This document shows positions 7,543 through 62,490 of a stretch of DNA of 64,000 nucleotides, piece by piece. The position numbers and the translations under genes are program-made. A model generated the notes under the pieces. The model had not been told where the DNA came from. It searched no databases and was given only the letters and a program-made list of their open reading frames with translations. Origin of the DNA: Candidatus Doudnabacteria bacterium RIFCSPHIGHO2_12_FULL_48_16 (GTDB lineage Bacteria > Patescibacteriota > Doudnabacteria > UBA920 > O2-02-FULL-48-8); assembly GCA_001780035.1 (NCBI GenBank), contig MFEY01000004.1:10399-74398 (forward strand), given 5' to 3'. Within the stretch, counting starts at the first letter, position 1. Every line of letters starts with the position of its first letter.

Positions 7543-8766
7543 TTAGTTAAATTTAATTTCCTTAAATATTTCGGCTGAGGGACGGATTTTGCGCTCTTGA
7601 GTCGCATAATTGACTTCAATCAAGCCGAAGCGCGGCCCAAATCCGTCATGCCATTCATAATTATCGGTCAGCGACCAGTGGAAATAGCCCCGCAGATCAA
7701 CTCCTTGATCCAGGGCTTTGGTCAGCCAAGACAGCGTCTCACTCAAAAATTTTGGCCGGCGGGTATCAGCCGCGTCCGCCAAGCCGTTTTCCGTAATGTA
7801 AATCGGTTTTTTATATGTTTTTAGATCCAAAAGCAAATGATAAATTCCTTCCGGGTGCAGAACCCAGCCCATATCGGAACGGCTCAGCTGATCATCCAGT
7901 TTCATTTGGCCGTAAGTGAAGTTGCGGTTCATTTCATCCATGCCGTGCCGCCAACTGAATTTACACCGGTTATAAAAATAATAATTGAGTCCGATAAAAT
8001 CCTGATACTGTTCGATTTTTTGCAGAAAATAGTGATTGCCGATCCGGTCGGCGATGTAGGCCGTGAGCCGGTCAAGCAAATTATTTTTTCCATAGGCTTC
8101 AAAATAGGCGAAATTTTTGGCAATGCCGATCGGCACCGGACCCAGCGCCTGCTTAATGGCTCTGTAGCCAGCTTTGTGCGCTTCGATTAAGTTGTCCACC
8201 ACCTTGCGGGTCAACAACAGATTTTTCTTAAACGGCGGATGATGGCCCCGCTTATAGGAAGCCATGGCGTAAACTTCCGGTTCATTGAGCGTGACCCAAA
8301 GATCGATTTCCTTGCCCAAATTCTGCGCCACGAACCAAGCATACCGGCCAAACGCCTCAATACCCTCTTTTGTCTCAAACCCCCCTTTATCCGCCAGCCA
8401 TTGGGGCAAAGTCCAATGCCACAGAGTGACCATGCGGGTCAGCCCCTGCTCCTTCATTGACTGCAAAACCTTTTTATAGTGTTCAATGGCCTTGCTGTCC
8501 CAGCGGCCTTCCTTCGGCTCAATCCTGGCCCATTCAATCGAAATTCGCATGGCATTGAGGCCAATGCTCCTGGCCAAGCCAAAATCTTCCGGATACCGGT
8601 TGTAATGATCGCAAGCGGCACCGGATTTGGGTAGTTTGCCCGCCTGCTCCCAATGCCACCAATCCGAATTGATGTTGTTGCCCTCAACCTGGTGCGCGCT
8701 GGCAGCGGCACCCATTAAAAAATCGTTTGGAAATTGAAATTTTGTTTCCTGACTTGGGGTTTCCAT
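7543..8766 (-). CDS. GH1 family beta-glucosidase/beta-galactosidase
   Basis: TLNEP acid/base and ITENG nucleophile motifs; HWSLTDNYEW. Confidence 0.85.
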   Translation of the reverse strand: METPSQETKFQFPNDFLMGAAASAHQVEGNNINSDWWHWEQAGKLPKSGAACDHYNRYPEDFGLARSIGLNAMRISIEWARIEPKEGRWDSKAIEHYKKVLQSMKEQGLTRMVTLWHWTLPQWLADKGGFETKEGIEAFGRYAWFVAQNLGKEIDLWVTLNEPEVYAMASYKRGHHPPFKKNLLLTRKVVDNLIEAHKAGYRAIKQALGPVPIGIAKNFAYFEAYGKNNLLDRLTAYIADRIGNHYFLQKIEQYQDFIGLNYYFYNRCKFSWRHGMDEMNRNFTYGQMKLDDQLSRSDMGWVLHPEGIYHLLLDLKTYKKPIYITENGLADAADTRRPKFLSETLSWLTKALDQGVDLRGYFHWSLTDNYEWHDGFGPRFGLIEVNYATQERKIRPSAEIFKEIKFN

Positions 8767-8852
8767 AGCTCTTTAATTATACCATTTTTACCGAAAAAAC
8801 CGAACCGTCGTGTCAATACAAAAAACCCGATCGTCAAATCGGATTTTTTGTC

Positions 8853-8927
8853 TGGTGACCTCACAGGGAATCGAACCCTGATTCTAGCGTTGAGAACGCT
8901 ATGTCCTAACCGTTAGACGATGAGGCC
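8853..8927 (-). tRNA. tRNA-Glu (anticodon CTC)
   Basis: Cloverleaf reconstructed by hand: acceptor GGCCTCA/TGAGGTC, T-loop GGTTCGATTCC, anticodon loop TTCTCAA, encoded CCA. Confidence 0.8.
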
Positions 8928-8955
8928 TTAATCTACAGCTAATTATACGATTTTA
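8907..8955. repeat. Direct repeat copy A (22 nt of the tRNA-Glu 5' end plus about 27 nt of flank)
   Basis: TAACCGTTAGACGATGAGGCCT is identical at 10668-10689; the flank is about 75% identical. Confidence 0.7.
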
Positions 8956-8981
8956 TACAATTTACATCAATAACCAAAAAA

Positions 8982-9003
8982 CCCTCCGGTGATTACGGGA
9001 GGG
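8982..9003. terminator. Hairpin CCCTCCGgtgattaCGGGAGGG flanking the island ORF
   Basis: Near-duplicate of the hairpin at 10452-10472. Confidence 0.5.
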
Positions 9004-9034
9004 TTTTGTTTTTCGGTCTGGATTAACAGAATTA

Positions 9035-10375
9035 TTAAATTCTATTTACAAGCACTTCGGGTAGCTGGAGTATTTTGTCTCCTTGGCTAAACCCGTTTCT
9101 TATTATCGCCGTGATTACACCATTCGGCAGACTTGATTTTTTAGTAGCAGATCTCCCCACGTGATAACGGGAATCAAAGCCAGTCTTCCCTAATGCAATA
9201 GGTATCACTTTTATGCCCGCTGATCCCAATAACGCATCCATCGGGGCTTTGATATCTTTAAACTGACTTAGCCAGGCATTAGCTTGGTCCAGAGGTCTTA
9301 AGCTTTCGGGATCGCCTGTGGCACTCATATACTTATACCCCTCGTTATTAACCAATTCATTATATAACAGGTCGAAGCCACCTAGATTATCCGTGATATA
9401 TCTTGACTGATCAAAATTTTTAAGTTTTTCACGCTCCCCGCTGGTAAGAACACAAAATTTAAACAACACATCTTTCACGCTCTGAGTGATTTTCTCCTGT
9501 TGCTCAACCGAACCTCCCGCACCTATCTCGCCTTTAACGAACTTTCCAACCACGCCTAAATTTTTTGCCGCATTTGCATACCGCTCCACTGGCTGCAACA
9601 TACCCTTAAAAGTATTTCTAATACCCAGGTCTTGTGGGCGTTCTGAGGAGGCTTTATCGATTTTCGAGTTGAACACAACCAGCTTGACAAAAAAATCTGT
9701 CTGACGCTGCTTCACCTGCTCTATATCTTCTTGATTTCTTGAATAGACATCCAGTACTAAAGCCTGATCCAGAGTCAATCTTTCATCTTCAGCAATTCCA
9801 GCTCGCCATGTTTGTTCTTCCGATGTGGCAGTCTGTAGGTCGCTCTGCATTTGACTGAGGGATTGTTCAAGATCAACCACTTCCTTCTTGTAGCCGGGGA
9901 TAAAAACTTCTTCCCATTTGGTAAGTGCCGCTTGAGCCTCGGCAAGTGCTGCTTTAGCACGTTCTACACCGTCTTTTTCGGACACCAATAGAGAACCAGG
10001 TTTTACCCGAGCTTCCGCTTGTCTTAACTCATCATGCGCTTGTTGTAGAAATTCTTTACGCTTTTCTACGCTTTCTAGGAAATCTCTACTCCCTCGACGG
10101 AGTTGCGATTTGGCATATTCCAGAGGAGTGCGGGCTTCAATCATCTTACGCACAATGGCGGTACGGGCTTCAAAAAAATTGATTGATTTGGATAAATTCG
10201 CCTGTCCTTCCGGTCGTTCCAGAAGAGCTGTTATCTTGCCCTTTAGTGCTTCGGGGGCTATCGCCGCTACTCCTGAAAAGTCTTGTTCTACTGTGTTATT
10301 ACCAGCAATTTCTGGCCTACGCATTCCTGTGCTTGGATCAATATCTTCTCCGAATCTCTGTTCTTCATCATCCAT
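9035..10375 (-). CDS. Hypothetical 446-aa coiled-coil-rich protein, cargo of the tRNA-Glu island
   Basis: No recognisable domain. Codon usage is rich in AGA/AGG/GGA/ATA, unlike neighbouring genes. Confidence 0.5.
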   Translation of the reverse strand: MDDEEQRFGEDIDPSTGMRRPEIAGNNTVEQDFSGVAAIAPEALKGKITALLERPEGQANLSKSINFFEARTAIVRKMIEARTPLEYAKSQLRRGSRDFLESVEKRKEFLQQAHDELRQAEARVKPGSLLVSEKDGVERAKAALAEAQAALTKWEEVFIPGYKKEVVDLEQSLSQMQSDLQTATSEEQTWRAGIAEDERLTLDQALVLDVYSRNQEDIEQVKQRQTDFFVKLVVFNSKIDKASSERPQDLGIRNTFKGMLQPVERYANAAKNLGVVGKFVKGEIGAGGSVEQQEKITQSVKDVLFKFCVLTSGEREKLKNFDQSRYITDNLGGFDLLYNELVNNEGYKYMSATGDPESLRPLDQANAWLSQFKDIKAPMDALLGSAGIKVIPIALGKTGFDSRYHVGRSATKKSSLPNGVITAIIRNGFSQGDKILQLPEVLVNRI

Positions 10376-10451
10376 AGCGATTTGATTAATTCATTATACT
10401 AACAAATATAGTATATTTAACTTAGTCCTTAAGTTCAAGTGATACAAAAAT

Positions 10452-10472
10452 CCTCCCGTGATCAACGGGAGG
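10452..10472. terminator. Hairpin CCTCCCGtgatcaaCGGGAGG
   Basis: Direct-repeat partner of the hairpin at 8982. Confidence 0.5.
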
Positions 10473-10499
10473 ATTTTTGGTTTGCGGCTTTTGATTAAC

Positions 10500-10667
10500 G
10501 GAAGAGTTTAACGACTTTGGCCATGAACTGGCCAGTGACGTTTTTGAACTTGACCCAACTGCCATCCCCCACACTGATGTCGGCTGCAGTTTTAGTTTCC
10601 CCGTCAATCTTAACTTTAGTGTTCACGTCTACAGTTACGGTCTGCGTCTGACCGGTAACGCTGTTGG
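10500..10667 (-). pseudogene. C-terminal fragment of a paralog of the secreted protein at 11709-12338
   Basis: Hand translation ...VNTKVKIDGETKTAADISVGDGSWVKFKNVTGQFMAKVVKLFR* aligns with ...ADTKVMINGESKTIADIQVGDSGWVKFKNEAGTLIAKFFNLFR*. No start codon; it runs into repeat B. Confidence 0.6.
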
Positions 10668-10716
10668 TAACCGTTAGACGATGAGGCCTGAAATTAGCTT
10701 AATTATATCGTTTTGT
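10668..10716. repeat. Direct repeat copy B of the tRNA-Glu 5' segment
   Basis: See copy A. Confidence 0.7.
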
Positions 10717-10754
10717 TCTGGTATAATCAATGCATGATTTGATATAATACATCA

Positions 10755-11663
10755 ATGAAACGATTTTTTTCCGGAATTTTTATTGCGCTCCTCTTAAGCG
10801 GCCTGGGGGTTTGGAGTTATGCCAAATTCCACGTAGTACCCTGCAGCGAACCGGTTAAATATTCTCTCGGCCGGTTTGATGGGCAGTTCGGAATTAATCA
10901 GGAACAATTCCTAGCCGATATTGAAGCGGCCTCCAACATCTGGGCCACCGCCGCAAGCGGCCAGTCTTTATTTGTCTACGATCCGGCCGGATCGCTCAAA
11001 ATCAATCTAGTCTATGACTCCCGGCAAGAAACCACCAACCGGCTGCGGAGCCTGGGAATAAGCATTGAAGACACCAAAGATTCATACGACAAACTAAAAC
11101 TAAGATATCAAACCTCAAAATCCGATTACGAGTTGGCCAAACAGGCTTATGAAAACGAATTAGCCAAATACCAGCAAGACCAGAATGACTATAACCAGCA
11201 GGTCAATTACTGGAATTCCCGCGGCGGCGCGCCCAAAGAAACCTACGACTCGCTGGCGAGCCAAAAAAAACAGCTCGACCAGCGCCGGGCCCAATTAACG
11301 GCCGACCAGGCCGAGCTTAATCAACTGGTCGCCAACCTCAATGCCATAATTGATGCGCTCAATCAACTGGGCAAAAAACTGAATTTGAATATCGCCGATT
11401 ATAACAATGTCGGCGCCTCCCAAGGATCAGAGTTTGAAGAAGGCCTTTATGTTGAAAGTTCGACCGGCAAATATATCGATATTTATGAATTCGACAATCA
11501 AACCCAGTTGGTGCGCCTTCTGGCTCACGAACTGGGCCACTCCCTGGGCCTGCTTCATGTCGATGACTCCGAGGCCATCATGTATCGCCTTAACTCTTCC
11601 ACCAACCAAATCGCGACCGGCGCCGACATCGCGGAACTCAAAGCCATCTGCAAGTTGCCATAG
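10755..11663 (+). CDS. Membrane-anchored metzincin (matrixin-like) zinc metalloprotease with a long coiled-coil segment
   Basis: HELGHSLGLLH (HExxHxxGxxH) plus Met-turn AIMY; N-terminal TM. Confidence 0.65.
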   Translation: MKRFFSGIFIALLLSGLGVWSYAKFHVVPCSEPVKYSLGRFDGQFGINQEQFLADIEAASNIWATAASGQSLFVYDPAGSLKINLVYDSRQETTNRLRSLGISIEDTKDSYDKLKLRYQTSKSDYELAKQAYENELAKYQQDQNDYNQQVNYWNSRGGAPKETYDSLASQKKQLDQRRAQLTADQAELNQLVANLNAIIDALNQLGKKLNLNIADYNNVGASQGSEFEEGLYVESSTGKYIDIYEFDNQTQLVRLLAHELGHSLGLLHVDDSEAIMYRLNSSTNQIATGADIAELKAICKLP

Positions 11664-11708: not shown

Positions 11709-12338
11709 TTAGCGGAAAAGATTGAAGAATTTGGCAATCAGAGTGCCCGCCTCGTTCTTAAATTTTACCCAACCGCTGTCCCCAACTTGGATATCGGCGA
11801 TGGTTTTACTCTCACCGTTGATCATGACCTTGGTGTCTGCGTTGGTGGTGACAGTCTGTGATACTCCGGTCAAACCATTGGTAATGGTTATGGAATTGTC
11901 GGTGACGGCCGTAACTTTGCCTGAGGCTCTGGTTACCGGCCGGCTAAGGTCACGGACCTGCGTGGCGGTCAAGACTGTACCGCTAATGCTGCCGGATACA
12001 ATTACCTTATCCCCGGCCTTAAGGTCAGCCCAACTTAAAACCGCTTCGTCGTTGCCCTTGATTTTGGTATCGCTATTGATGACGACGGTTACCTGGCCGT
12101 TACCCATAAGGTCAGACAAATGTTTGCCAGCTTTGGCGTTGAATACCAGACTTGAAGAAGTTGCCGAGTTAACGGTTCCCCAGAATTGGAATTTGTTAAG
12201 TCCCAATCGCAAACCGCCAGCTTGCTCCGCCTTGACCTTGATAAAACCATGGCTCTCGTTTTCATGAGCCGAGGCTATGCTGACGGTAGCGGTAAGCGCC
12301 AGCGCTGCGATCGTAAGAACTGCAAGTAGTTTTTTCAT
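11709..12338 (-). CDS. Secreted beta-rich repeat protein (hypothetical)
   Basis: Signal peptide MKKLLAVLTIAALALTA; repeated K/V/T beta-strand modules. Paralogous fragment at 10500. Confidence 0.5.
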   Translation of the reverse strand: MKKLLAVLTIAALALTATVSIASAHENESHGFIKVKAEQAGGLRLGLNKFQFWGTVNSATSSSLVFNAKAGKHLSDLMGNGQVTVVINSDTKIKGNDEAVLSWADLKAGDKVIVSGSISGTVLTATQVRDLSRPVTRASGKVTAVTDNSITITNGLTGVSQTVTTNADTKVMINGESKTIADIQVGDSGWVKFKNEAGTLIAKFFNLFR

Positions 12339-12468
12339 AAATTTCCTTTCTCCCTCCATTCATTGAATCGAAGCATTGCCAGTGAGGTTACAAACTTTAA
12401 GGGTAAAACAAACAAAAAAATAAGCCCTTTCGGCTCTAACTAATAAAGACGAAAAAAATAATTTTTTG

Positions 12469-18699: not shown

Positions 18700-20610
18700 A
18701 TGGCGCGGCTAGAAACACAAATCAACCAAATATACCTAACAGACCCGGCGAACAAAAAGACTTCGCTGATTCTTTACGAAGAGCAAATCTCCCCATCCGC
18801 CCAGCTCTTCATCCTGGCCGAACTTTGGGACATCCGAAAAAAAACAGAAGAAACTGACTTAAAAAAAATTTCAGAAATTATCCTGGAATCGTTCCGGGCC
18901 AACAAGCGCCTAGCCGCCGAGGCGCTGTTTGAATCCTCGCTGGCCCAGATCAACCAAAACCTAGCCGATCTCGCCCACAGCGGCCGCAAGTCCTGGGTCG
19001 GCAAGTTCTCCGCCGTGCTTTGCCTCAAATCCGGTGATAATATTTTCGCGGCCAATGACGGCGCTTGCGCGTGTTTCTTGCATCGCAAAGGTGAACTGGT
19101 TGAAATCCTGCCCGCGGAAAAACGCGGCGACCACCCATTCAAAACATTTATCAACTTCACCCAGGGCCGCTTGGCTCCTTCCGACAACCTGATTATCAAT
19201 ACCTCCAATATTTTTGATTATGTCTCGATCGAACATTTTTCCGAGATATTGAACCGACAAACCCCGGAGCAGGCCTCTGTGGAAATCTCAAAAATTTTAC
19301 AGGATTCATTAAACGAATCCCAGGCCTTCTGCGCCTTTCTCCTCAGTTTCACCAAACCTCAAGCGGCCGGCGCCCCGGCTCAGCCCGAGACAAAGCCGGA
19401 ACCGATTTATGCTCCGTTACCCGAAGATTTGCCCCCGTCAGAGGCCAATGCCAGATTTGGCAAACTGTCTTTTTCCCGGCCCGCCTGGCTCGCAAAGCCA
19501 AAAATTCGGCTGGGCCGGATCGCCGCCTTGCAGAAACTGCAATGGTCATATTTCCAAAACCTGTCCCGCCCCGCTAAATTTTTCTTTATCAGTTTTTCAA
19601 TCTTTCTGATTCTTTTTTTGGCCAACCTGACCAACTACCTGGTCAATCGCCATTACAAAACGGTCCAGATGAGAATTGAAAACCAAATTACCCTGGTTAA
19701 TCAGGATCTGACGGAAGCTCAATCCGCAATTATTTACAAAAACAACGACGAGGCCTTAAACGCCATGAACCGGGCCCAGAAAGATTTTGAAACCTTGCTT
19801 GGCATGGACGAAGTCGCCGCCAAAAAACTCGAGCCCCGGCTGGAAAACGTCAAAACCCAGATCAACAAAATCAGCCGGATCGAAAACGCTCAGGTGATCG
19901 CAACGCTCAAACGCAATCCGGTATCACTCGGCAAAGCCCCGACCGCTTTTCTTTTGGCCGGCGAGGATTCCAATTCCCTGTCGCAGTATAGCGGCAGCGC
20001 GCTGAAAGAATATTTCCTGCTCAACAGCCTCAAAAACAATGTCACCGGAATTGCTTTCATGCCGGGCGTCGGAGTGGTTGTAAGCAGCGGCAATCTCGTA
20101 TCCAAAATCAACCAGGACATGCAGCAATTTGAAACGATTGTCAGCGTTGATCAGGGGCAATTATCGGCTATCCGGGCCGGTGCGGGCGGATTGTATGTGC
20201 TTGACCTGGCCGGCCGGCAAGTGCTTCGGTTGACGCTGAATAAAACCAAAATCCAATCAACAAAAGCTGCTTCGATCGAAAACGGCGATATCCGCGACAT
20301 TGGCGCGGATAAGGATTTATACATACTATCAGCCGACCGTTTAACAAAGATCTCCGGCGGGGCCAGCACCAATATCCCCTTGCCCAATCTCACCGACGGC
20401 ATTTCCAACGCCAATAAACTGTTTGTCGGCGCCAACCTTTACATTCTCGAAGCCAACAAAAAAAGAGTGGTCGTTATTAGCAAAACCGGATCACTCTTAA
20501 ATCAAATTTATTTCCCCAATGCCCGGGATTTGCGCGATCTGTATATTGACGAAGCGGCGAGAAGCATGTATTTGCTCGACGGCGACAAACTGGAAAAAAT
20601 CACTTTTTAG
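18700..20610 (+). CDS. Hypothetical 636-aa membrane protein
   Basis: Central TM (FFFISFSIFLILFL); no recognised domain. Confidence 0.45.
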   Translation: MARLETQINQIYLTDPANKKTSLILYEEQISPSAQLFILAELWDIRKKTEETDLKKISEIILESFRANKRLAAEALFESSLAQINQNLADLAHSGRKSWVGKFSAVLCLKSGDNIFAANDGACACFLHRKGELVEILPAEKRGDHPFKTFINFTQGRLAPSDNLIINTSNIFDYVSIEHFSEILNRQTPEQASVEISKILQDSLNESQAFCAFLLSFTKPQAAGAPAQPETKPEPIYAPLPEDLPPSEANARFGKLSFSRPAWLAKPKIRLGRIAALQKLQWSYFQNLSRPAKFFFISFSIFLILFLANLTNYLVNRHYKTVQMRIENQITLVNQDLTEAQSAIIYKNNDEALNAMNRAQKDFETLLGMDEVAAKKLEPRLENVKTQINKISRIENAQVIATLKRNPVSLGKAPTAFLLAGEDSNSLSQYSGSALKEYFLLNSLKNNVTGIAFMPGVGVVVSSGNLVSKINQDMQQFETIVSVDQGQLSAIRAGAGGLYVLDLAGRQVLRLTLNKTKIQSTKAASIENGDIRDIGADKDLYILSADRLTKISGGASTNIPLPNLTDGISNANKLFVGANLYILEANKKRVVVISKTGSLLNQIYFPNARDLRDLYIDEAARSMYLLDGDKLEKITF

Positions 20611-23530
20611 GTTCCGTAAGCTGCCCAATATTAAACGGGAAGTTGACTAGGTCCGGGTTAATCACCCGCAAGAGCAGATACGAACCGAATAATAAAACCA
20701 TTCCGATGACCGCACCCCAAATATATTCCTTGCCCTTGGTCGCTTGTTCGGCGTTGCCCGCTGAGGTCATGACATAATAGCCACCCAAAATGGTCATCAG
20801 CACGGCCAATAACGATGCAATCCCCAACGACCAGACATAAATTTGATTAATTAATTTCTGTAGAGTCTTGGAATCCACAGAGCTGCTCGCTGCCTGAGAC
20901 TGCGGCGGCGGCGCCAGGGCCAGGAACGGCGCATTAACACTCTGAAAACTGGTCCCGACCACGCTCGTGTAATTTCTGCTAGCCAGAGTTAAGGCTCCGT
21001 TCGGCGTTATCGCGCTAGTGATATTAAAGCTGCCCAAGGCCGCAGCTAATGCGGCTTTGATCGCAAAGAGTTTATTGAGCCAGTTAATGCCTGTGGTATC
21101 GGAAACGGAAATTGCCAATTCGGAATTGTAAACAAAACCGGTATCGGCTATCTCCGTTATCCAAGCATTGCCGTCCCAATCCCCGCTGGCCACAAAGAAT
21201 GAGCCTGTCCATGGGTTGTAATCCACGGTATTGCTGGCAAATCCCTCGGAAACGGGATTGATCCCCAGCGTAATCACCGGATACTCGTCTGAAGCCCTCC
21301 CGTCATCATAGACGGTTCGCCCCCAGGTCCCGGCCACGGCCTCGTCCCGGTCCCGTTCCATCCAGATGATCATGGCTGCGCCGCTCTTTGGCGAATACGC
21401 GATGTGAGCGCCGGAAAATCTATTGCGGCCGGGATAAGTTTTGGTCAATTGTACCGGTTCCCCGACCCTCTGCAGCGTCTGGGCGTTGATCCGGACCAGC
21501 ATAATCCGATCATCCTCATTTGCCGTATCGTTGCCCGACACGACAGCGGCAAAAGCAACCCAATATTCGTTGAGTTTGCTGTTGAAAGCAATGCCGGCTT
21601 GGCCCTGATACGGGTAGGAGTCAATGACCATGATCTGATCCGAGACAGTCCCTTGCTCACTCACTGTCTTTAAACCCAAGAACGCTCCGGATGGCTCGTA
21701 AAGCACCAGAAATTTTTTGCTGGCTGAATCATACGCCAGGCCGTTCAAAAAAGCGGCCCCTTGATTGATCGCAAAATCTGAACCCTGAACGGTGCCATCG
21801 GCTGAGACAAACCGGCCATATTGGCTGCGGCAGCGGTTGCCGCAGGGCCGGGTATCTTCCCAGACGACCAAAAACTTTTCGAAATCCGGACTATAAGCCA
21901 CTTTGGGCGTACCAGCCCCACCCGAGCTGTCAATCCGGAAAGCCGAGCCTTTGGGCGCCATGGTCTTGGGATCCGCCAGAAAACCGACAATCTGGCGATC
22001 GGCATCAGCCACAAATTTGCCGGCTGCAATCAGCACAGAATCAGTCTTCGCGCCGTAGGCCGCGCCGATTCCTCCCTGGCCATCGGCAGGAAAAACCACC
22101 GGCTTTGAGGGATCTGTCCCCGGCTCATGTCCCCGAGTTTGCGGCTTGTTCAGATCATTGGCGTTGCACATCAAAAGCATTGTGGGATCTTCGGGTAATG
22201 GGTCGCAAACGATGCCGTTCGGGATTTGTTCTTCCGTAACGGTGACGGACAAAGGTTTGCCGTTGGAAGTCAGGCCCGCAGAAAAAATCCGAACCGTGTA
22301 ATTGTCAGCCGGCAAGTCTGCCGGAATGACAATGGTCGTCCGCGTGCCATTGGCGCTAACCTGCCCGCCATAGGAATCAATCCGACCATCGCTGGCATAA
22401 AATTCCACGGTTGCCGACAAATTGCTACCCCTGATGACCAGAGATTGGCCAGCCGTGGCCCGCGACAAATTCAGCGAATCAATGTGGGGAGCTCTGGGAA
22501 TCGGCGATTCCGAACAATCAGCACCGCAAAGATCAACCCGCGGAGCGGCATCGGAGACAGTCGTTACGATCAGCTGGCCGCGGGCATCGCTGGCAGCGAT
22601 GACAAACTTGTCCCCGGCGTGAACCACGCTAAAGGAGGCGGCGTGGGCATTAACAACGATAACGCTGCGCTCACCCCACGGCCGAAGCATCATAAACTCA
22701 TCGGTGTCATTCCAAGCCTCGGTCGCCAGCCAAATCCGGCCGTTGACGCTCAGGAGCTGCGGAATACTTTCATTCATTCCCCGAACCGCAGACAGATCAA
22801 CGTCTTTGCCGGAAGGATCGATTCCATGCACCGGCCCGTATCCGCCGTAAGCAATATAGCCGTTCAAAACATCAGCGCCAAAATATGGTGTCTGAGGCGT
22901 ATAAACCTTATTAAGTCCGCTGCCTCTGTAAACACAAATCGCATCGTTGTCGTTGCTGCAGGCGTGAACCAACAAATCCCCGCCAAGGGCCATGGCCCCG
23001 CCGGGTCGGGTTTGATCTAAAATTCTATTGTCTTTCACAATTTGGGTCACCGCCTTATAAGAAGCCCAGTGCCCATCCTTGGCCACAAAGTTATTGCCCA
23101 AAACCAGTTGCGGGTTATCCGCCGTTTTTTTGGGAACCCACTCGCCGACCTTGACTTCATAACGGTAAAATCCCGGCTGGCCATCCTCAATTTCGCAAAC
23201 AAAGGTCAGGGTGTCCGGTTGAATCCACTGGCCGGCAATACAGCGGTGCGCTCGATTGGCAATGTCAGCCGGATCGCGGAAGTCCCAATTCTGGCCGGTC
23301 TGTAAATCGGTAACCCAACTCTCGCCCCAGTTGCCATAGGTGATAAAGCGCCCGTTGGGCGAAAGGTCCGGCCACCAGCCGTTGATGGTCTGAGGCGGCG
23401 ACCAGCTGCTCAGGTTCGGAGCCCGCTCGGGGCTGGCGGCCAGCAGCGGCGAATCCGTTTGAGGCAAACCCAAAGCCAGGACCAAAATGGCGGCCAAACC
23501 CAGATTGATAAATTTTTTAGCGGTAATCAT
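20600..23530 (-). CDS. Large secreted surface protein (976 aa) with C-terminal double-TM anchor; beta-propeller/Ig-like content suspected
   Basis: Signal peptide MITAKKFINLGLAAILVLALG; C-terminus GGYYVMTSAGNAE...IWGAVIGMVLLFGSYLLL. Last gene of the tight operon. Confidence 0.6.
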   Translation of the reverse strand: MITAKKFINLGLAAILVLALGLPQTDSPLLAASPERAPNLSSWSPPQTINGWWPDLSPNGRFITYGNWGESWVTDLQTGQNWDFRDPADIANRAHRCIAGQWIQPDTLTFVCEIEDGQPGFYRYEVKVGEWVPKKTADNPQLVLGNNFVAKDGHWASYKAVTQIVKDNRILDQTRPGGAMALGGDLLVHACSNDNDAICVYRGSGLNKVYTPQTPYFGADVLNGYIAYGGYGPVHGIDPSGKDVDLSAVRGMNESIPQLLSVNGRIWLATEAWNDTDEFMMLRPWGERSVIVVNAHAASFSVVHAGDKFVIAASDARGQLIVTTVSDAAPRVDLCGADCSESPIPRAPHIDSLNLSRATAGQSLVIRGSNLSATVEFYASDGRIDSYGGQVSANGTRTTIVIPADLPADNYTVRIFSAGLTSNGKPLSVTVTEEQIPNGIVCDPLPEDPTMLLMCNANDLNKPQTRGHEPGTDPSKPVVFPADGQGGIGAAYGAKTDSVLIAAGKFVADADRQIVGFLADPKTMAPKGSAFRIDSSGGAGTPKVAYSPDFEKFLVVWEDTRPCGNRCRSQYGRFVSADGTVQGSDFAINQGAAFLNGLAYDSASKKFLVLYEPSGAFLGLKTVSEQGTVSDQIMVIDSYPYQGQAGIAFNSKLNEYWVAFAAVVSGNDTANEDDRIMLVRINAQTLQRVGEPVQLTKTYPGRNRFSGAHIAYSPKSGAAMIIWMERDRDEAVAGTWGRTVYDDGRASDEYPVITLGINPVSEGFASNTVDYNPWTGSFFVASGDWDGNAWITEIADTGFVYNSELAISVSDTTGINWLNKLFAIKAALAAALGSFNITSAITPNGALTLASRNYTSVVGTSFQSVNAPFLALAPPPQSQAASSSVDSKTLQKLINQIYVWSLGIASLLAVLMTILGGYYVMTSAGNAEQATKGKEYIWGAVIGMVLLFGSYLLLRVINPDLVNFPFNIGQLTEPKK

Positions 23531-30592: not shown

Positions 30593-32092
30593 TCAGATGG
30601 CGAACAGGCGTTCGGCGATCCCGAAGTGGATGCCGACGTCGTCCCTCACCGTCAGCCGGTTACCCTGAGGATCTTCGCCGGTGCCGCACGGAATCGTGCG
30701 GACCTTACCATCGGCGAACATGCGGTAGAGCTTGTCGCGCAGCGCGTCAGCGACCTGGCCCCGGTTCTCTCCCGGCTTGACGGTCGCGTTGCCGATCAGA
30801 TACGCGACACGCGTGCCATCCGAGATGAAGGTCCCATCCTTGTAGCCCATCCCCGCCGGCAGCAGGGTCACGTTGTTCTTCTTGAGCCCCTTGAGATCAA
30901 GCATCATCGGCTCGCCCGGCTTGTGGCGCCAAGGGTAGCCTTTGTATTCCCCGCCCGGGCCGGGACCGGTGACGAGCGCGATAGTCATCGCGATCTGGTC
31001 ATCCCTCACATCCGGCTTGACCTCGTCGAGGTGCCCTTCGAACATCGCCATGATCAGCTGGCCGAAGTTGCGCACGAGGCGCAGCATGACCTGGAACTCC
31101 GGTTCGGGCGGCCGAATGTTGATCTCGCAGACGCGAATCGACGCCGGCTTGCCGAACTCGTTGAAGAACACCATGCATCCCGGATACAGGATGCAGGGCC
31201 GCAGGATGCCGCGGCGCCTCATCTCCTCGATCAACGGCCGGAAAACTTGCTTTACCGCCATCTCGAGCAGTTCCTGAGAATGCACGGGGTGCGGCCCCAG
31301 GCTCGCCATGCCACCGGTCACCGGATTGTTCCGGCTGATCTGACCGGCGAACCGGCCCTGGTAGTCCATGGCCGTGGGCAGGATCTGGAAGTTGCCGTGC
31401 ACGTCGACGAGGGCAGTGAAGCTGACCTCGATTCCCGCCATGTAGGACTCCATGAGCAGGGGCCAGGGAAGACCCGGCCCAAGCAACTTCCTGTAGGACT
31501 CGGCGTAATCTGCCATCAGCGTCTCGTAGACTTCGCGGATCTCCCACGGGCTGCCGATGAACCGCGCGCCTTTGCCCGCCGCCTGGAACGGATACTTCGC
31601 ATAGGCGCCGCCGTGCTGTTCCAGGTATCGCAGACACGCTCTGAGAAACGGCTGGTAATGCCTGGCTTCGATCGCAACCCAGTCGGGAGCCACCGGCACC
31701 CGCGCCGAAGCGCAGAGTTGTTTGCATGTTACCTTGTCGCCCTCGATGAATGAAGCCGCCGCGGTCAGGCCGGCGACCCGGTCCCCGAACCCCGCTTCGG
31801 TCATCCGATCCACGAAGCCGTCGATCTGCAGGGCTTCCGGCATCGGCACCACGTAGTCGATTTCGTCGTCTGACAGCGCGCGCAGCACACGCGCGGCGTA
31901 ATCCTGCACCGAGGAACCTCCCGGCACCTCGAGGAAATCAACTGGCCAGCCAGCCAGTTCGGCATAGGGCTTCATTGCGGGCATGCCACGAATCACCACT
32001 CCCTGGAACTCGCCTTTCTCGCCGCTACGGCTGACAGTCAGTGCCGAAAGAAACGTGCGGGCGTCAGAGCCTGCAAATCCGATTCGCTTCAT
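30593..32092 (-). CDS. ATP-grasp ligase of the PurD (phosphoribosylamine--glycine ligase) family, with a long N-terminal extension
   Basis: CEINIRPPEPEFQVMLRL aligns with PurD EFNCRFGDPETQPIMLRM; AAGKGARF aligns with AAGKGVIV. High GC. Confidence 0.6.
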   Translation of the reverse strand: MKRIGFAGSDARTFLSALTVSRSGEKGEFQGVVIRGMPAMKPYAELAGWPVDFLEVPGGSSVQDYAARVLRALSDDEIDYVVPMPEALQIDGFVDRMTEAGFGDRVAGLTAAASFIEGDKVTCKQLCASARVPVAPDWVAIEARHYQPFLRACLRYLEQHGGAYAKYPFQAAGKGARFIGSPWEIREVYETLMADYAESYRKLLGPGLPWPLLMESYMAGIEVSFTALVDVHGNFQILPTAMDYQGRFAGQISRNNPVTGGMASLGPHPVHSQELLEMAVKQVFRPLIEEMRRRGILRPCILYPGCMVFFNEFGKPASIRVCEINIRPPEPEFQVMLRLVRNFGQLIMAMFEGHLDEVKPDVRDDQIAMTIALVTGPGPGGEYKGYPWRHKPGEPMMLDLKGLKKNNVTLLPAGMGYKDGTFISDGTRVAYLIGNATVKPGENRGQVADALRDKLYRMFADGKVRTIPCGTGEDPQGNRLTVRDDVGIHFGIAERLFAI

Positions 32093-32136
32093 GGGTCCAC
32101 TCTCCTTCTAAAAATCCCCCTGCAACTTGATTTCAT

Positions 32137-32173
32137 AGCTTATCACTTTGTCCGCGCTTGGGCAAATAAAAAA
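32137..32173 (-). promoter_or_regulatory. Duplicated promoter-like module TAGCTTATCACTTTGTCCGCGCTTGGGCAAATAAAAA, copy 1, upstream of the purD-like gene
   Basis: Identical 37-mer at 33000-33036. The minus strand gives TTGCCC-N17-TAAGCT. Confidence 0.5.
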
Positions 32174-32228
32174 CGTCAACGGAAGCCTCCCAACTTCCGC
32201 TGACGTATCGTGAGAAAACAGGCCTCGT

Positions 32229-32963
32229 CTACCCCTTCGGGAAGATATGCCGGGCGCAGCGCTTGATCTGGTCGAGTAGCGCCGCTTCGTGGGGGAGAAC
32301 CAGATCGTCGTCGAACTTGATCTCCTGCACGCGGTTCTCCGAGAATGCCCGAAGGGTTCTGATCTGCACCTCGTGCTCGAACGGCAGGAGGCGCGCGGCC
32401 AGAGTCTCGGGATCATCGGTCTTGATCTCGATCGAGGATCGGGCGTAGTCGAGCACCGCGCCCTCGTCGAATTCCACCGTGACCCGCTGAGCCACGGCTT
32501 CGGTCCAGAAGTTGCGCTGCATCTCGCGCACGAATGCCAAGCGCGCGCAATGGGTCTGCCGGCCGTGCAGCTTGCCGAAGTCAGGCCGGCCGGGACGGAT
32601 CGGGCCGGCGTGCTGATTGACTGCCATGCCCGCAAACGCTTCGATGAGATTGGCTGGCGTCCTGGGGATCCAGCCATACTGGCCCCAAAAATCAGCGCCA
32701 CACCGCCGCGTGATCCGCAACAGTTCTTCGCCGTAGGCTTCGGGCGAGGAGAATTCCGACTTCTTGACCACGAAGATGTCCCTGCCCATCTCGAGCCCAT
32801 GCGCCTCGGCCTTCATGATCGCGCCGATCCCGTCCGTGCTCGCGATCACGCACGCCGGTTCAACGTAAGGCAGACGGCTATCCTTAGTTGCCTGCAGGAT
32901 CTGGTTCATGGTCGTGCCGCCGCCGGATACCGCGAGCGCCACCCGTAACTTATTTCCTCTCAC
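32229..32963 (-). CDS. Formyltransferase of the PurN/Fmt family (PurN-like)
   Basis: VALAVSGGGTT N-terminus, NQHAGPI (N-x-H-x-x-LP-type) and downstream H and D. Probable GTG start after AAGGGGGA. Confidence 0.55.
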   Translation of the reverse strand: MRGNKLRVALAVSGGGTTMNQILQATKDSRLPYVEPACVIASTDGIGAIMKAEAHGLEMGRDIFVVKKSEFSSPEAYGEELLRITRRCGADFWGQYGWIPRTPANLIEAFAGMAVNQHAGPIRPGRPDFGKLHGRQTHCARLAFVREMQRNFWTEAVAQRVTVEFDEGAVLDYARSSIEIKTDDPETLAARLLPFEHEVQIRTLRAFSENRVQEIKFDDDLVLPHEAALLDQIKRCARHIFPKG

Positions 32964-32999
32964 ACGTCCCCCTTTGAGAATAATAAAAAGGACTTCCAG

Positions 33000-33036
33000 A
33001 TAGCTTATCACTTTGTCCGCGCTTGGGCAAATAAAA
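33000..33036 (-). promoter_or_regulatory. Duplicated promoter-like module, copy 2, upstream of the purN-like gene
   Basis: See copy 1. Confidence 0.5.
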
Positions 33037-45409: not shown

Positions 45410-46465
45410 ATGGAAATCAACTACCTACCGCTTAAAAAAGAATCCGAAGAGATCCTGGAGAAGCTCTCCAATACTACGGATTCGCAAGAACTCGCGAAAC
45501 TCGGCCGGCGCCAAGCCGAGCTTTTGCCATTGGTCAATAAAATCGACCGGATCGAAAAGATTAAAATCGAAATCGCCGAACATGAAAAGCTCGTGGCCGA
45601 AAAATCAGAGCTGGCTGAGATGGCTCTCGCTGAACTCCCGGCCCTGCAATCCGAACTGGATGAGCTGTTGGAATATTTACGGATCGCCATGCTGCCGAGG
45701 GATCCGTATGACGACAAAAATATTGTTATGGAAATCCGGGCCGGGGCCGGGGGTGACGAAGCGGGATTGTTTGCCAGCGAGCTGTTCCGCATGTATTCCA
45801 AATATGCCGAAAGGCTCAAATACAAAACCGTCATCGTGGCCGCCAGCCGCACCTCCATCGGCGGCTACAAAGAAGTGATTTTTGAAATTCTGGGCCAAGG
45901 CGCTTATTCCAAATTTAAATATGAATCCGGAGTCCACCGGGTCCAGCGGGTGCCGGAAACCGAAAAAGCCGGCCGCGTTCACACGTCGACAATCACAGTG
46001 GCGGTCATGCCGGTGATTGAGGAAGTCGACTTCAAAATTGATCCCAAAGATATAAAAATGGAGGCCACGACGGCTTCCGGGCATGGCGGGCAATCGGTCA
46101 ACACCACTTATTCCGCCGTCCGCATGACCCATTTGCCGACCGGAATTATGGTCGTCATGCAGGATGAGCGCAGCCAAGCCCAAAACCGGGAAAAAGCCAT
46201 GATGGTTTTGCGCGCACGTGTCATGGCTCTGGAAGAAGAGCGCAAACGCAAGGAGCTGAGCGACAAACGCAAATCCCAGATCGGCACCGGCGACCGGTCA
46301 GAAAAAATCCGAACTTACAACTTTCCCCAGGACCGCATCACCGACCATCGGATCAACCAAAACTGGAGCCAGATCCAAACTATTCTCGATGGCGGCATGG
46401 GTCCAATCACCGAAGCCATGATTGCGGAGGATCAGCGCCGGCAACTCGAAAATCTGAACAAATGA
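45410..46465 (+). CDS. prfA: Peptide chain release factor 1
   Basis: GGQ motif [11 protein letters not shown]; PET tripeptide in the PxT position. Confidence 0.85.
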
Positions 46466-47352
46466 CCATTCGACAAGCATTAAACTCCGCCACTAGGATC
46501 CTTAAACGCAAAAGCACTTCCCCATCTTTGGATGCCGAGGTGCTTTTGGCATACGTGCTTAAAAAACCCAAAACAGACATTTTTGTCCGTATGGACAATT
46601 TTGTCTACAAGCGAGATCGACAAAAATTTTTAGCACTAATCAAGAAACGTTCGCAAGGCTGGCCGGTCGCTTATTTAACCCATGAAAAAGAATTTTTCGG
46701 CTTGAAATTCTACGTCGATAAAAACGTGCTGATCCCCCGCCCGGAAACCGAAGGGCTGGTTGATCTGGTTCTCGAAAAATTAAAAATTGTAAATTATAAA
46801 TTAAAAATCTTGGACATTGGGACTGGCTCGGGATGCATTATTGTTAGTTTAGCCAAGTCTTTGCGCAATGCTGAACTTGTTTCAGCATCCCAACCAAGAG
46901 ATCCTGAAATAAATTCAGAATTTCGATACTTTGCTTCTGACATCTCCTCTGCCGCTCTTAAAATTGCTCGCAAAAATGCCCGCCGGCACAAGGTTAAAGT
47001 TAACTTTAAAAAATCAAATCTTTTATCCGCATGGAAAAATCAACGATTTGACGTCATCGTCGCCAATCTTCCCTATCTGGCCAAAGAAACTGACCCCAGC
47101 ACCAAATTTGAACCTAAAAAAGCTCTAATCGCAAAAAACCACGGATTGGGCTTAATTGCAAAACTGCTCCAACAAATCTCAACGCTCAGCGCTCCTCCCT
47201 CAGCGCTCTTTCTAGAAATTGGCCACGACCAGGGGGCCAAAATAAAAAAATTGGCAGCCAAATGGCTGCCAAGCTTTGATACAAAAATATTCAGAGATAT
47301 GTCGGGAAAAAATCGCTATGCGATCCTGAACGCCCCAGACCTTATTCTTTAG
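46462..47352 (+). CDS. prmC: Release factor glutamine methyltransferase (HemK)
   Basis: GTGSGCI SAM motif and NLPY (NPPY-type) motif. 4-nt overlap with prfA. Confidence 0.8.
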
Positions 47353-48191: not shown

Positions 48192-49361
48192 CTAGCCCAG
48201 AACGTCGATGTATTTATACATGCCGCCGGTGTTGAAGACGACCACCGTGTCGTCCTGTTTGATCGAACCGGCTTCACGGAGCACGTGCACCGCGTGCATC
48301 GCCGCACCACCCTCAGGTGCCGCATTGATGCCTTCAAAGCGACCGAGGTCGCGCATGCCCTGAACCATGTCCGTGTCCGCGACGGCGACCGCTGCGCCCT
48401 GGCTCTCACGCACGGCGCGCAGAACCAGAAAATCGCCAATGGCCCGAGGCACCCGCAAGCCGTCCGCGATTGTGGTCGCGTTCTCCCACGGCCGGGCCTT
48501 CTCCGTACCTTCATCGAATGCACGCACGATCGGCGCGCAGTTGGCGGCCTGAACCGTGACCATATGCGGCCGCTTGACTGGATCGATCCACCCCATGGCG
48601 CTCATTTCCTCGAACGCCTTCCACATGCCAACCATGCCGGTTCCGCCACCGGTCGGGTAGATGATCCAATCGGGCAAGCGCCAACCGAACTGTTCGGCGA
48701 GTTCGTAGCCCATGATCTTCTTGCCCTCGATGCGATACGGCTCCTTGAGCGTAGAGACGTCATACCAGCCGAGCGGTCCGCCCGTTTCGGCGGCAATCCG
48801 ACCGGCGTCAGTAATGAGTCCATCCACGAGTGTGACCTTGGCGCCGTACAACTCGCATTCGCGGATGAACGGCGTCTTCACGTCGCGCGGCATAAACACC
48901 TGAGCCTCAAGTCCCGCCTTGGCCGCATACGCTGCCATGGCACAGCCGGCGTTGCCGGCCGTGGGGATGGACAGGACCTGGGCGCCGAGATACATGGCCC
49001 GTGTCACAGCCGCGGACAGCCCGCGCGCCTTGAACGAATTGGTCGGGTTCAGTGATTCATCCTTGACGAAAAGTTTCGTGAGACCGAGCTCGCGCCCCAG
49101 CCGTTCGGCGTGAACCAGCGGTGTCCAACCCTCGCCGAGCGACACCGGCGCCTCACCAGGCAGCAGTGGCATCACTTCGCTATACCGCCACATCGATCGC
49201 TCGTCCATGATCATGGCGCTGCGACCCTTTTTGCAGGCGGCATCGAGGTTGTAGCGCACCAGCAACGGCATCCCGCACTCGCAGAGATGGTGCGGTTGTC
49301 GAGGATCGAATGGACCGGCGCCACAAGGCACTGAACATTCCAAATAAAATGACAGTCGCAT
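48192..49361 (-). CDS. thrC: Threonine synthase with N-terminal Zn-ribbon (high-GC gene)
   Basis: FVKDESLNPTNSFKARG PLP-lysine signature; CSVPCG...CECG ribbon. Confidence 0.75.
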   Translation of the reverse strand: MRLSFYLECSVPCGAGPFDPRQPHHLCECGMPLLVRYNLDAACKKGRSAMIMDERSMWRYSEVMPLLPGEAPVSLGEGWTPLVHAERLGRELGLTKLFVKDESLNPTNSFKARGLSAAVTRAMYLGAQVLSIPTAGNAGCAMAAYAAKAGLEAQVFMPRDVKTPFIRECELYGAKVTLVDGLITDAGRIAAETGGPLGWYDVSTLKEPYRIEGKKIMGYELAEQFGWRLPDWIIYPTGGGTGMVGMWKAFEEMSAMGWIDPVKRPHMVTVQAANCAPIVRAFDEGTEKARPWENATTIADGLRVPRAIGDFLVLRAVRESQGAAVAVADTDMVQGMRDLGRFEGINAAPEGGAAMHAVHVLREAGSIKQDDTVVVFNTGGMYKYIDVLG

Positions 49362-53471: not shown

Positions 53472-53509
53472 CATAGTACACTTTAAGCGATCGTGTAATC
53501 CGTACTATG
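53472..53509 (+). repeat. 38-bp direct repeat 1 (CATAGTAC-N22-GTACTATG), ending on the ATG of gene 53507
   Basis: Partner at 54073-54110 is about 80% identical; each copy has 8-bp palindromic ends. Confidence 0.65.
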
Positions 53510-54061
53510 AAACCAAAAAACGAATTATCATATAAAATCTTAAAAATACTTAGCGTAGGAGCCCTGATTACGGCAGTCTCGATACTCTCCCCGACCCTAC
53601 CTTATGTCTTGCTGCGTGCATATTTGAGGCGGAAACTCAGGACTAAGTATACTCCTTATCAAATTAATAATAGCTTGGCCTATTTGAAGCGTAAAAAATT
53701 TATTGCTTTTAAGTTCAAAGAACGCAAACTTAAAATTATGATTAGTAAACTTGGTCGGCGGCATTTTGCTAAACAAAGCATGAATGAAATCGAGATCAAA
53801 CCCACAACATGGGATAGACGATGGCGATTGTTGACTTTTGATATTCCGGAAAATCACAAAGGCGCTAGACAAACATTTCGCCGTAAACTAAAGGATCTGG
53901 GATTTTTTCACTTTCAACGTAGCGTCTTTATTTTCCCTTACGCCTGTGAGCTTGAGCTCGGAGAACTGGCGAATATTTTGGATATCAGGGAATATGTGCA
54001 TATACTAATTTGTGACCGGTTCCCAGGCGACCAACCCTTAGTCAAAAAATTCAAACTATAA
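53507..54061 (+). CDS. PaaX-family-like transcriptional regulator (winged helix plus C-terminal domain)
   Basis: WDRRWRLLTFDIPENHKGARQTFRRKLKDLGFFHFQRSVFIFPY resembles the PaaX C-terminal pattern. Confidence 0.4.
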   Translation: MKPKNELSYKILKILSVGALITAVSILSPTLPYVLLRAYLRRKLRTKYTPYQINNSLAYLKRKKFIAFKFKERKLKIMISKLGRRHFAKQSMNEIEIKPTTWDRRWRLLTFDIPENHKGARQTFRRKLKDLGFFHFQRSVFIFPYACELELGELANILDIREYVHILICDRFPGDQPLVKKFKL

Positions 54062-61379: not shown

Positions 61380-61508
61380 CTGTCTTTGCGAGGAGGCGCT
61401 TTATCGCCTTGCTTTATCTTAGGCGCCGACGAAGCAATCTCATTCTTGAACAGAGATTGCTTCGCTCGCGCGATAGTTAATACTCATTGGCGCTCGCTCG
61501 CAAAGACA
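61380..61508 (+). other. Nested hairpin structure between thrS and miaA
   Basis: Outer IR CTGTCTTTGCGAG / CTCGCAAAGACA; inner perfect hairpin GAAGCAATCTC...GAGATTGCTTC. Confidence 0.4.
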
Positions 61509-61516
61509 ATCTGCTT

Positions 61517-62413: not shown

Positions 62414-62490
62414 CGCAGGTCAGGATCTCTGATTTAAGACTGAGACCCTGAATCCCGCCAAAGGGACGGGCAGGCAAGTTCAGGGTTGCG

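Follow-up and report, generated by a model that had tools for sequence, protein, structure and literature searches.

A 1,761-bp insertion has split the tRNA-Glu(CTC) gene of Candidatus Doudnabacteria bacterium RIFCSPHIGHO2_12_FULL_48_16, a member of the candidate phyla radiation (CPR), and the inserted DNA has supplied the 5' end and the promoter with which the tRNA gene was rebuilt. The event lies within a stretch of 64,000 nucleotides of contig MFEY01000004.1 (positions 10,399 to 74,398 of the forward strand), hereafter called the window, whose own numbering is used throughout. The inserted DNA carries one complete gene, encoding a 446-amino-acid (aa) protein with a GrpE-like C-terminal domain (the cargo gene), and the 3' fragment of a gene of the DUF5666 family. 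The locus represents insertion into a tRNA gene without an integrase, with regeneration of the 5' end and a breakpoint in the D-loop, and it overturns no current understanding. Gene acquisition by the tiny, host-dependent CPR bacteria is poorly documented: recognisable mobile elements are few, and competence genes are conserved. The locus is a cleanly resolved case of such acquisition, with the states before and after the event known, in which the incoming DNA both interrupted an essential tRNA gene within the D-loop and restored it.

The boundaries of the insertion are marked by a 22-nt block, TAACCGTTAGACGATGAGGCCT, present in two exact copies (repeats A and B) in the 64 kb and expected in none of the shuffled sequences; the copies are spaced 1,761 bp apart. 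A BLAST search of the window with the intact tRNA-Glu gene recovers nt 1–21 of the tRNA a second time, at 10688–10668 (E = 8.6e-7), and the breakpoint falls between A21, at the end of the D-loop, and G22. The displaced stub has the same orientation as the intact gene and lies on its 5' side, as in the 5'-fragment configuration of the Islander database. The original prediction, made from the letters of the window without database searches, had reported the 22-nt repeat and had read it as an insertion or recombination scar at the tRNA-Glu gene; the repeat is exact, and the scar is borne out by the relatives described below. A motif dispersed throughout the genome was considered as well and is ruled out, as the 22-mer and the hairpin type that accompanies it each occur at only these two sites in the 64 kb.

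The ancestral state was read from relatives found with the protein of the neighbouring matrixin-like (M10) metalloprotease gene (closest identities 55–66%), for which four syntenic contigs were fetched (L007, L008, L010 and L011). In all four, the tRNA-Glu(CTC) gene is the immediate upstream neighbour of the M10 gene, in divergent orientation, and a member of the DUF5666 family is found one gene away from the tRNA gene. None of the four has a tRNA-Glu fragment, no counterpart of the 446-aa protein is encoded in their fetched loci, and none has a DUF5666 gene where the window has the DUF5666 fragment, that position being taken by the M10 gene, after which comes the DUF5666 ortholog. From the tRNA 5' end to the M10 start, the L007 sequence can be aligned at nearly every base with repeat B and the flank of repeat B (z = 12.3). 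Because of this match, and because the relatives are empty, repeat B is the 5' end that the tRNA gene had before the event, still in place at the native promoter, and the 1,761 bp to its left are a true insertion. Comparison with related genomes had been named as the test that could refute the original prediction, and the orthologous loci lack the arrangement seen in the window. The predicted form of the empty site was wrong in one respect: tRNA-Glu stands beside the M10 gene, not beside an intact paralog of the truncated gene. A search of species-representative genomes with the M10 protein returned only distant, non-syntenic matches in other CPR phyla.

The body of the window tRNA (nt 22–66) is identical to that of L007. 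The acceptor stem differs among the lineages: the window has U5 C6, L007, L010 and L011 have C5 U6, and L008 has U5 U6; the 22-nt identity of repeats A and B includes the lineage-specific U5 C6. The 3' side of the tRNA gene is variable among the loci. Unrelated 137-aa open reading frames (ORFs) without a family match lie between a GH1 gene and the tRNA gene in L007 (7531–7944) and L010 (1401–1814), on opposite strands, and the corresponding interval of the window (8767–8852) is only 86 nt long and contains a terminator.

Aligned in register, repeats A and B agree over 25 nt at 96% and require a 1-nt indel farther out; the alignment of the 45-nt flanks is only marginally above that of shuffled sequences (z = 2.4, 19/500). 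The flank identity of about 75% given in the original prediction is thus only roughly right, and the similarity beyond the 22-nt blocks is weaker than was stated. What the two flanks have in common is a sigma-70-like promoter of identical geometry, one borne by the insert and now serving the regenerated tRNA gene, the other native and orphaned. As a separate observation, the region upstream of the M10 gene (10719–10754) is about 22 nt longer than in L007 and repeats a TATAAT-containing motif (ggtataatcaatgc / tgatataatacatca), which gives the M10 gene two candidate -10 boxes.

Table 1. Features of the tRNA-Glu locus and its insert, in window coordinates
Feature	Position	Strand	Evidence
Intrinsic terminator 3' of tRNA-Glu	8818–8851	minus	inverted repeat; -18.4 kcal/mol, z = -5.1
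tRNA-Glu(CTC), intact/regenerated, CCA encoded	8853–8927	minus	ARAGORN; Rfam tRNA 61.3 bits
Repeat A, tRNA nt 21 to -1 (acceptor 5' strand, D-stem 5' strand, entire D-loop)	8907–8928	unstranded	exact match
Insert-borne promoter of regenerated tRNA, TTGATG-17-TATAAT	8942–8970	minus	promoter scan, 10/12 matches
Inner direct repeat, copy A: terminator hairpin (8978–9007) and relic like the last codons/stop of DUF5666 (GATTAAC)	8972–9037	unstranded	-15.8 kcal/mol
Cargo gene, 446 aa: long helical N-terminal part and GrpE-like C-terminal domain	9035–10375	minus	ORF; Pfam; AF2 model
Promoter-like site 5' of cargo gene, TTGAAC-17-TATACT	10410–10438	minus	consensus scan, 9/12 matches, weak evidence
Inner direct repeat, copy B: terminator hairpin (10445–10479) and true 3' end/stop codon of DUF5666 fragment	10442–10510	unstranded	perfect 15-bp stem, -23.6 kcal/mol, z = -6.9
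DUF5666-family 3' fragment, ~62 codons, no start codon, fused to displaced tRNA stub	10495–10698	minus	BLASTP
Repeat B, displaced original tRNA-Glu 5' end	10668–10689	unstranded	exact match; L007 alignment
Native tRNA-Glu promoter, now orphaned, TTGATT-17-TATAAT, within intergenic region common to divergent M10 gene	10702–10730	minus	promoter scan; orthologous to L007 flank, z = 12.3
Matrixin-like (M10) metalloprotease gene, resident, neighbour of tRNA-Glu in all four relatives	10755–11663	plus	Pfam; synteny
Intact resident DUF5666 secreted-protein gene, homolog of fragment	11709–12359	minus	Pfam DUF5666 4.4e-12

The cargo gene is foreign in composition. Its GC content at third codon positions (GC3) is 0.383, the lowest of the 47 window ORFs (the next is 0.391, and the others range from 0.42 to 0.81), 12 of its 28 arginine codons are AGR (AGA or AGG), and no other window ORF is as atypical by synonymous-codon likelihood (z = -2.6). 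The foreign codon usage that had been pointed out from the sequence is therefore upheld, as is, with the absence of the gene from the fetched loci of the four relatives, the view that the cargo came from elsewhere. Low GC3 alone is not proof of foreign origin in this genome, since the gene for PrmC, a release-factor methyltransferase (46462–47352), has a GC3 of only 0.42 though it appears to belong to one operon with prfA, whose 3' end it overlaps.

The 446-aa protein had been described as coiled-coil-rich and without a recognisable domain, and in the latter point the description needs correction. Residues 299–444 match positions 37–164 of the 165 in the Pfam GrpE profile (PF01025) at 28.1 bits, above the gathering cutoff of 25.8, and 10 of 15 aligned members of the cargo family have a GrpE match at E ≤ 0.01. 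An AlphaFold2 (AF2) model built on the family alignment (pLDDT 81, pTM 0.71) consists of two very long helices (residues 55–123 and 131–192), further helices, and a small C-terminal beta-domain. Among the best nine Foldseek matches of this model in the PDB, eight are GrpE structures (9a81, 3a6m, 1dkg, 9bls, 9blt, 4ani), seven with a probability of at least 0.98 and one with 0.97; these matches cover only the C-terminal 130–210 columns, with weak E-values (at least 1.6e-3) and TM-scores of 0.4–0.5. The fold search was needed because a sequence-profile search of the PDB is swamped by coiled coils and returns no GrpE. No NCBIfam model matches the protein, the GrpE models included, a structural search of BFVD gave coiled-coil noise only, and NCBI annotates the protein as hypothetical in four sibling metagenome-assembled genomes.

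GrpE is the nucleotide exchange factor of DnaK. The cargo protein resembles it (PF01025; 1dkg, 3a6m, 4ani) in its C-terminal ~150 residues, which match the profile and in which a long helix and the small beta-domain superpose; the motif G-x-T-x-F-D-S-x-x-H ... P-E-V-x-V-N-R of the cargo protein lies in this region. It differs from GrpE in length, with 446 aa and a long extra N-terminal helical region as against ~170–200 aa, and in context, as its gene is accessory, compositionally foreign, present in very few genomes and, in the window, not adjoining dnaK, dnaJ or hrcA. Neither dnaK nor dnaJ was found in the 64-kb window by Pfam scans and precomputed annotations. Judged by its fold, the cargo protein probably interacts with Hsp70/DnaK through the GrpE-like domain.

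The other coding element of the insert is a remnant. The original prediction had recognised here the C-terminal piece of a gene without a start, running into repeat B, and this stands: between the fragment and the C-terminus of the resident DUF5666 protein, identity is 56% (BLASTP, E = 2e-22), and the frame of the fragment reads into repeat B. The same prediction took the fragment for a resident paralog disrupted by the insertion, which is not the case. The fragment lies between the two repeats and therefore arrived with the insert, and the resident gene that was split is tRNA-Glu. At a GC3 of 0.59, the fragment is native-like in composition. It is as distant from the L007 ortholog (~56%) as from the resident gene, and it has the look of a DUF5666 gene from a different lineage within this group. 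A word-indexed search with the 61-aa fragment, which is of low sensitivity, returned no closer parent.

The joint between the fragment and the tRNA stub can be followed codon by codon. The homology to DUF5666, along the motif S-[IV]-[TS]-[IV]-[TQ]-N, extends three codons into the 22-nt block (L-T-V, encoded by CTA ACG GTT) and then ends; the matching codons of the resident gene are ATA ACC ATT. The overlap zone is the left ~10 nt of repeat B (TAACCGTTAG on the plus strand), which continues the DUF5666 frame and also constitutes nt 12–21 of the tRNA (CTAACGGTTA, in the D-arm), so that up to ~10 nt could belong to both parents. No Pfam domain call spans the DUF5666 codons inside the tRNA stub. 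This overlap suggests a microhomology joint.

Both hairpins that had been noted on either side of the cargo ORF were recovered. They fold as intrinsic terminators, are the sole two of their kind in the window, and form part of a longer, imperfect direct repeat of ~65 nt (z = 13.5, 0/2000 shuffles) whose copies are ~77% identical. Copy B includes the genuine end of the DUF5666 fragment, and the DUF5666 relic of copy A sits 8 nt past the stop codon of the cargo ORF. The inner repeats may go back to an earlier step, in which the ORF entered the DUF5666 gene of the donor at its 3' end and terminator.

The insertion appears to be fixed in the population: it is present in 24 of the 24 contigs read that encode an identical M10 protein, and the cargo and M10 proteins are indexed in an equal number (39) of collection blocks. 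The window sequence was also matched in NCBI assembly GCA_001777705.1 (contig MFEU01000011.1) and in JGI and ENA assemblies, and the island DNA at 8701–10800 is identical in three independent assemblies (JGI, ENA and NCBI). Some assemblies break inside the cargo gene near 9440–9487, and one variant of the cargo protein (P0002) has a 29-aa in-frame deletion in the coiled coil, at about 9930–10020. Truncated members of the protein cluster (197–315 aa) were considered as pseudogenes and rejected: P0232, the one member fetched, is explained by an N-gap in contig L021 (3996–4045) and by the contig end in L022, and the others break at similar positions. The deletion variant and the shared break sites suggest strain heterogeneity, not decay.

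As the original prediction had stated, no integrase accompanies the element. Neither an integrase nor a transposase was found in the island, in Pfam scans of 34 window ORFs, or among precomputed Pfam hits for the called genes from the window start to ~20.4 kb (the ORF at 155–1054 was not separately scanned). Searches of IMG/VR viral contigs, PHROGs, PADLOC, and phage and plasmid records yielded nothing meaningful, and no further copies of the element were found elsewhere. Two sequences would mark other states of the locus: the empty-site junction, ...TATGTCCTAACCGTTAGACGATGAGGCCTGAAATTAGC..., and the circle junction, in which the DUF5666 fragment and the 22 nt are followed by TAATCTACAGC... 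The empty-site pattern had no match in JGI metagenome contigs, a result that is uninformative, as the profile scan of this collection did not return the window organism.

We place moderate confidence in recombinational capture of foreign chromosomal DNA, anchored at tRNA-Glu, as the origin of this arrangement. The ancestral order was GH1 ... tRNA-Glu(CTC), M10 protease, DUF5666, MurF. The donor would have been the equivalent neighbourhood of another Doudnabacteria-like organism already holding the GrpE-like gene, so that the incoming DNA would have consisted, in order, of tRNA-Glu nt 1–21 with their promoter, a terminator, the AT-shifted GrpE-like gene, a second, related terminator and the 3' end of a DUF5666 gene. 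The insert indeed appears chromosomal in character, judging by the host-like GC3 of the DUF5666 fragment and by the siting of that family near tRNA-Glu in the relatives. The stub, though under no selection, is identical to the functional copy at 22 of 22 positions next to flanks that can barely be aligned, which fits a fairly recent join of DNAs from different lineages, in each of which selection had conserved the tRNA part. These 1,761 bp of foreign DNA would have recombined between nt 21 and 22 of the tRNA, at the 3' edge of the D-loop: at one end by homologous recombination in the near-invariant tRNA, with the left junction inside the tRNA gene or to the left of it, and at the other by an illegitimate joint at which the donor DUF5666 gene (...CTA ACG GTT ACC AAC...) shared up to ~10 nt with CTAACGGTTA. 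This one product could have arisen by homology-facilitated illegitimate recombination (HFIR), had linear DNA been taken up by transformation, or by a single crossover of the Campbell type inside the 22-nt block, had the fragment been circularised. The outcome would be a functional tRNA on the promoter that came in, one new expressed gene, and a dead stub of 22 nt that follows the native promoter and is fused to a gene fragment that is likewise dead. With M10, DUF5666 and MurF to the right, nothing essential was deleted and the tRNA remained functional because the joint fell back inside the tRNA gene. The means for such an event are known from elsewhere: com genes are conserved across the CPR, natural transformation has been shown in Saccharibacteria (PMC10633639), the window itself containing neither com genes nor recA, and HFIR joints at microhomologies of 3–10 bp are documented in competent bacteria in the account given in PMC6382021, which includes a summary of Meier and Wackernagel (2003).

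Several points weigh against this origin. The donor sequence was not found in word-indexed and HMMER searches, which leaves both the length of the microhomology and the derivation of the insert from a chromosome as inferences. The run of homology for three codons into the block could be due to chance, at a level of ~1% by rough estimate and not by a computed test. The homologous anchor is short, amounting to 53–75 nt of tRNA unless it extends to the left, and the donor must share U5 C6, which L007, L008, L010 and L011 lack. A regenerated tRNA gene (tDNA) with a correctly oriented end fragment is, moreover, the classical signature of an integrase island, and the diverged second pair of repeats around the cargo gene is left without a detailed explanation.

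That signature is the basis of the first rival explanation, an integrase-mediated mini-island, in which the 22-nt blocks would be the cores of attL and attR and the element a remnant of a larger island, or a unit resembling a cis-mobilisable element (CIME) that was mobilised in trans by an integrase encoded elsewhere; it would target the 5' part of tRNA-Glu and supply a replacement 5' end and promoter. We regard such an origin as unlikely, if well worth keeping in mind. An intact tDNA is accompanied by its cognate 5' end fragment in the right orientation and configuration, the identity block stops exactly at the tRNA 5' end, the insert brings a correctly spaced promoter, its cargo is foreign in composition, and islands with 5' fragments are known, making up 159 of 3,919 in Islander, ~4% (PMC4383910). 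Against this stand the lack of an integrase in the island and in the window ORFs scanned, a size of 1.76 kb, which is under the island size range, and a crossover in the D-arm rather than at the anticodon-loop or T-loop/acceptor subsites (PMC4383910). Nor was a second instance, an empty site, or a viral or plasmid relative found, and the other members of the cargo family are not near tRNA genes. The DNA adjacent to the supposed att site is a truncated chromosomal-type gene whose homology enters the core, and a microhomology joint to such a fragment favours recombination over integrase action.

A purely intragenomic rearrangement would dispense with horizontal gene transfer altogether: the tRNA 5' end and promoter would have been duplicated locally, and a resident DUF5666 paralog and the GrpE-like gene shuffled into place. 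It could draw on the 22-nt identity, U5 C6 included, on the native-like GC3 of the DUF5666 fragment, and on the resident DUF5666 gene only 1 kb away, but we consider it improbable, as the fragment is only 56% identical to that gene, no window ORF departs further from typical codon usage than the cargo gene, and the cargo gene is missing from the fetched loci of the syntenic relatives. In addition, the unselected stub is identical at 22 of 22 positions while flank A is barely alignable with flank B, a contrast that is incompatible with a single in-place duplication and by which an old in-place tandem duplication was ruled out. We give very little credence to a transposon-like insertion with a long target-site duplication (22–25 bp) in the tRNA gene. 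A perfect direct repeat does border the insert and a second pair of repeats surrounds the ORF, yet there is neither a transposase nor terminal inverted repeats, the inner repeats are only ~77% identical, and a staggered cut would produce neither a repeat edge placed just at the 5' end of the tRNA nor the promoter-like similarity past that edge; no copies of the unit at non-tRNA sites with ~22-bp duplications were found. Least credible of all is an assembly chimera, or misjoin, at the repeated tRNA sequence. The source is a metagenome-assembled genome, and some assemblies break inside the ORF, but independent JGI, ENA and NCBI assemblies agree on both arrangement and sequence, and all 24 contigs carry the insert.

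Per the Islander criteria (Hudson, Lau, and Williams 2015), tDNA islands measure 2–200 kb, have a tyrosine integrase and a crossover in the anticodon loop, T-loop or T-acceptor region, and have their fragment outside conserved protein-coding sequence (PMC4383910). The locus is like such islands in that the target tRNA gene was split and regenerated from the insert, an end fragment in the same orientation lies at the far border, and the cargo is foreign. It differs from them in having no integrase, a size of 1.76 kb (<2 kb), a D-loop breakpoint, the minority 5' type of fragment, and a fragment fused to a truncated protein-coding gene; no sign of excision and no other copies were found. As in HFIR, the locus would have one homologous anchor and one illegitimate joint at a microhomology of 3–10 bp, with no mobility genes required, and it belongs to a group with competence genes (PMC10633639). 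The differences from HFIR are that the process is here inferred from a natural scar, that the anchor would be very short, and that the joint lies inside the anchor gene, so that the result is a duplication and not the usual deletion.

CIMEs are cis-mobilisable, integrase-less derivatives of integrative and conjugative elements (ICEs), flanked by att sites and described in streptococci. The locus is like them as a small unit between att-like direct repeats at a tRNA gene, without recombination genes. It is unlike them in that it has no known cognate ICE or integrase, neither tandem accretion nor a second copy was found, and the junction holds a chromosomal gene fragment. If the recombinational origin is true, the locus is field evidence that transformation and illegitimate recombination shape CPR genomes, and island finders would have to reckon with a signature of 'tDNA plus fragment' that can arise without an integrase.

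The cargo gene also leads to a patchily distributed, uncharacterised family of GrpE-like proteins that lies in AT-shifted islets, twice beside toxin genes. A HMMER search of 1.84 billion representative proteins returned the cargo protein itself (in this species only), one homolog with 35% identity (P0123), and ~100 proteins whose similarity is confined to the C-terminal motif; in a word-indexed search, the cargo protein retrieved only itself and its 29-aa deletion variant. On contig L009, the gene for P0123 stands between gatB and miaA. L009 (1984–5787) is syntenic with the right end of the window (61487–63966, with FtsW, DnaE, ThrRS, MiaA and GatB; GatB 74% and MiaA 54% identical), and between the same two genes the window has only 77 nt (62414–62490). 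The gatB–miaA site is thus a case of reciprocal presence and absence of an accessory GrpE-like gene between the window and L009.

The family members of the four genomes seen are AT-shifted, each having a lower GC3 than nearly all genes around it: 0.383 versus about 0.59 in the window, 0.36 versus 0.41–0.58 in L009, 0.571 versus 0.78–0.84 in L015 and 0.462 versus 0.71–0.77 in L016, the larger flanking genes being compared in the last two. The small adjacent ORFs of L015 and L016, toxin genes included, are also AT-shifted (0.485–0.65; the 108-aa ORF of L015 is at 0.569). In L015 (2220–4602), the family member P0127 lies beside HicA/HicB and the 108-aa ORF, in an islet with GC3 values of 0.57–0.65 between ThrRS and SerRS (0.78–0.84). 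In L016 (5597–7428) and L018 (673–2504), a PemK/MazF toxin gene overlaps the downstream family member by 4 nt, and no small antitoxin gene is present upstream of the pair in either contig; in L016, GC3 is 0.485 for PemK and 0.462 for the 475-aa GrpE-like member. The PemK gene and the GrpE-like gene may form a two-gene module of a toxin and a GrpE-like protein. The window island has no second ORF that could be a toxin partner.

No tRNA gene was found near the other family members, and no convincing flanking direct repeats were found at those of L009, L015 and L016. The tRNA association is therefore specific to the event in the window and not a trait of the family, and the same holds for the nested-repeat architecture. 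From gene order and composition, the cargo family appears to consist of accessory genes that move without tRNA association. More speculatively, and with considerable doubt, the long GrpE-like proteins could be a mobile CPR accessory module acting on the host Hsp70, in some genomes with a PemK/MazF partner, that spreads without a recombinase by competence-driven homologous or microhomology recombination at anchors such as tRNA genes. If that were true, the window would offer a natural and datable example of the integrase-free route, with a tRNA gene repaired by an imported 5' half and promoter.

Elsewhere in the window, several regions stand out in composition or content. Two adjacent genes at 30593–33011, encoding a GARS_A-type ATP-grasp protein and a formyltransferase, have a GC content of 0.62–0.63 and a GC3 of about 0.8, as compared with a GC of 0.49 in the rest of the window, and were probably also acquired by horizontal transfer, as a block, from a donor richer in GC. 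Two further high-side outliers are a PALP (tryptophan-synthase-beta-like) gene at 48192–49361 (GC 0.62, GC3 0.74) and an asparaginase gene at 54547–55689 (GC 0.56, GC3 0.70). The second-lowest GC3 of the window (0.39) belongs to a 184-aa ORF at 53507–54061 with a PaaX central/Cas2-like domain (PF20803, 9e-20; CRISPR_Cas2, 3e-5); no CRISPR array was noticed. Finally, a 976-aa protein with a C-terminal T4SS-pilin domain (PF18895) is encoded at 20600–23530, adjacent to large ORFs of 636 aa and 193 aa without a family match (18700–20610), and the proteins of this region (18700–23530) are typical uncharacterised CPR surface proteins.

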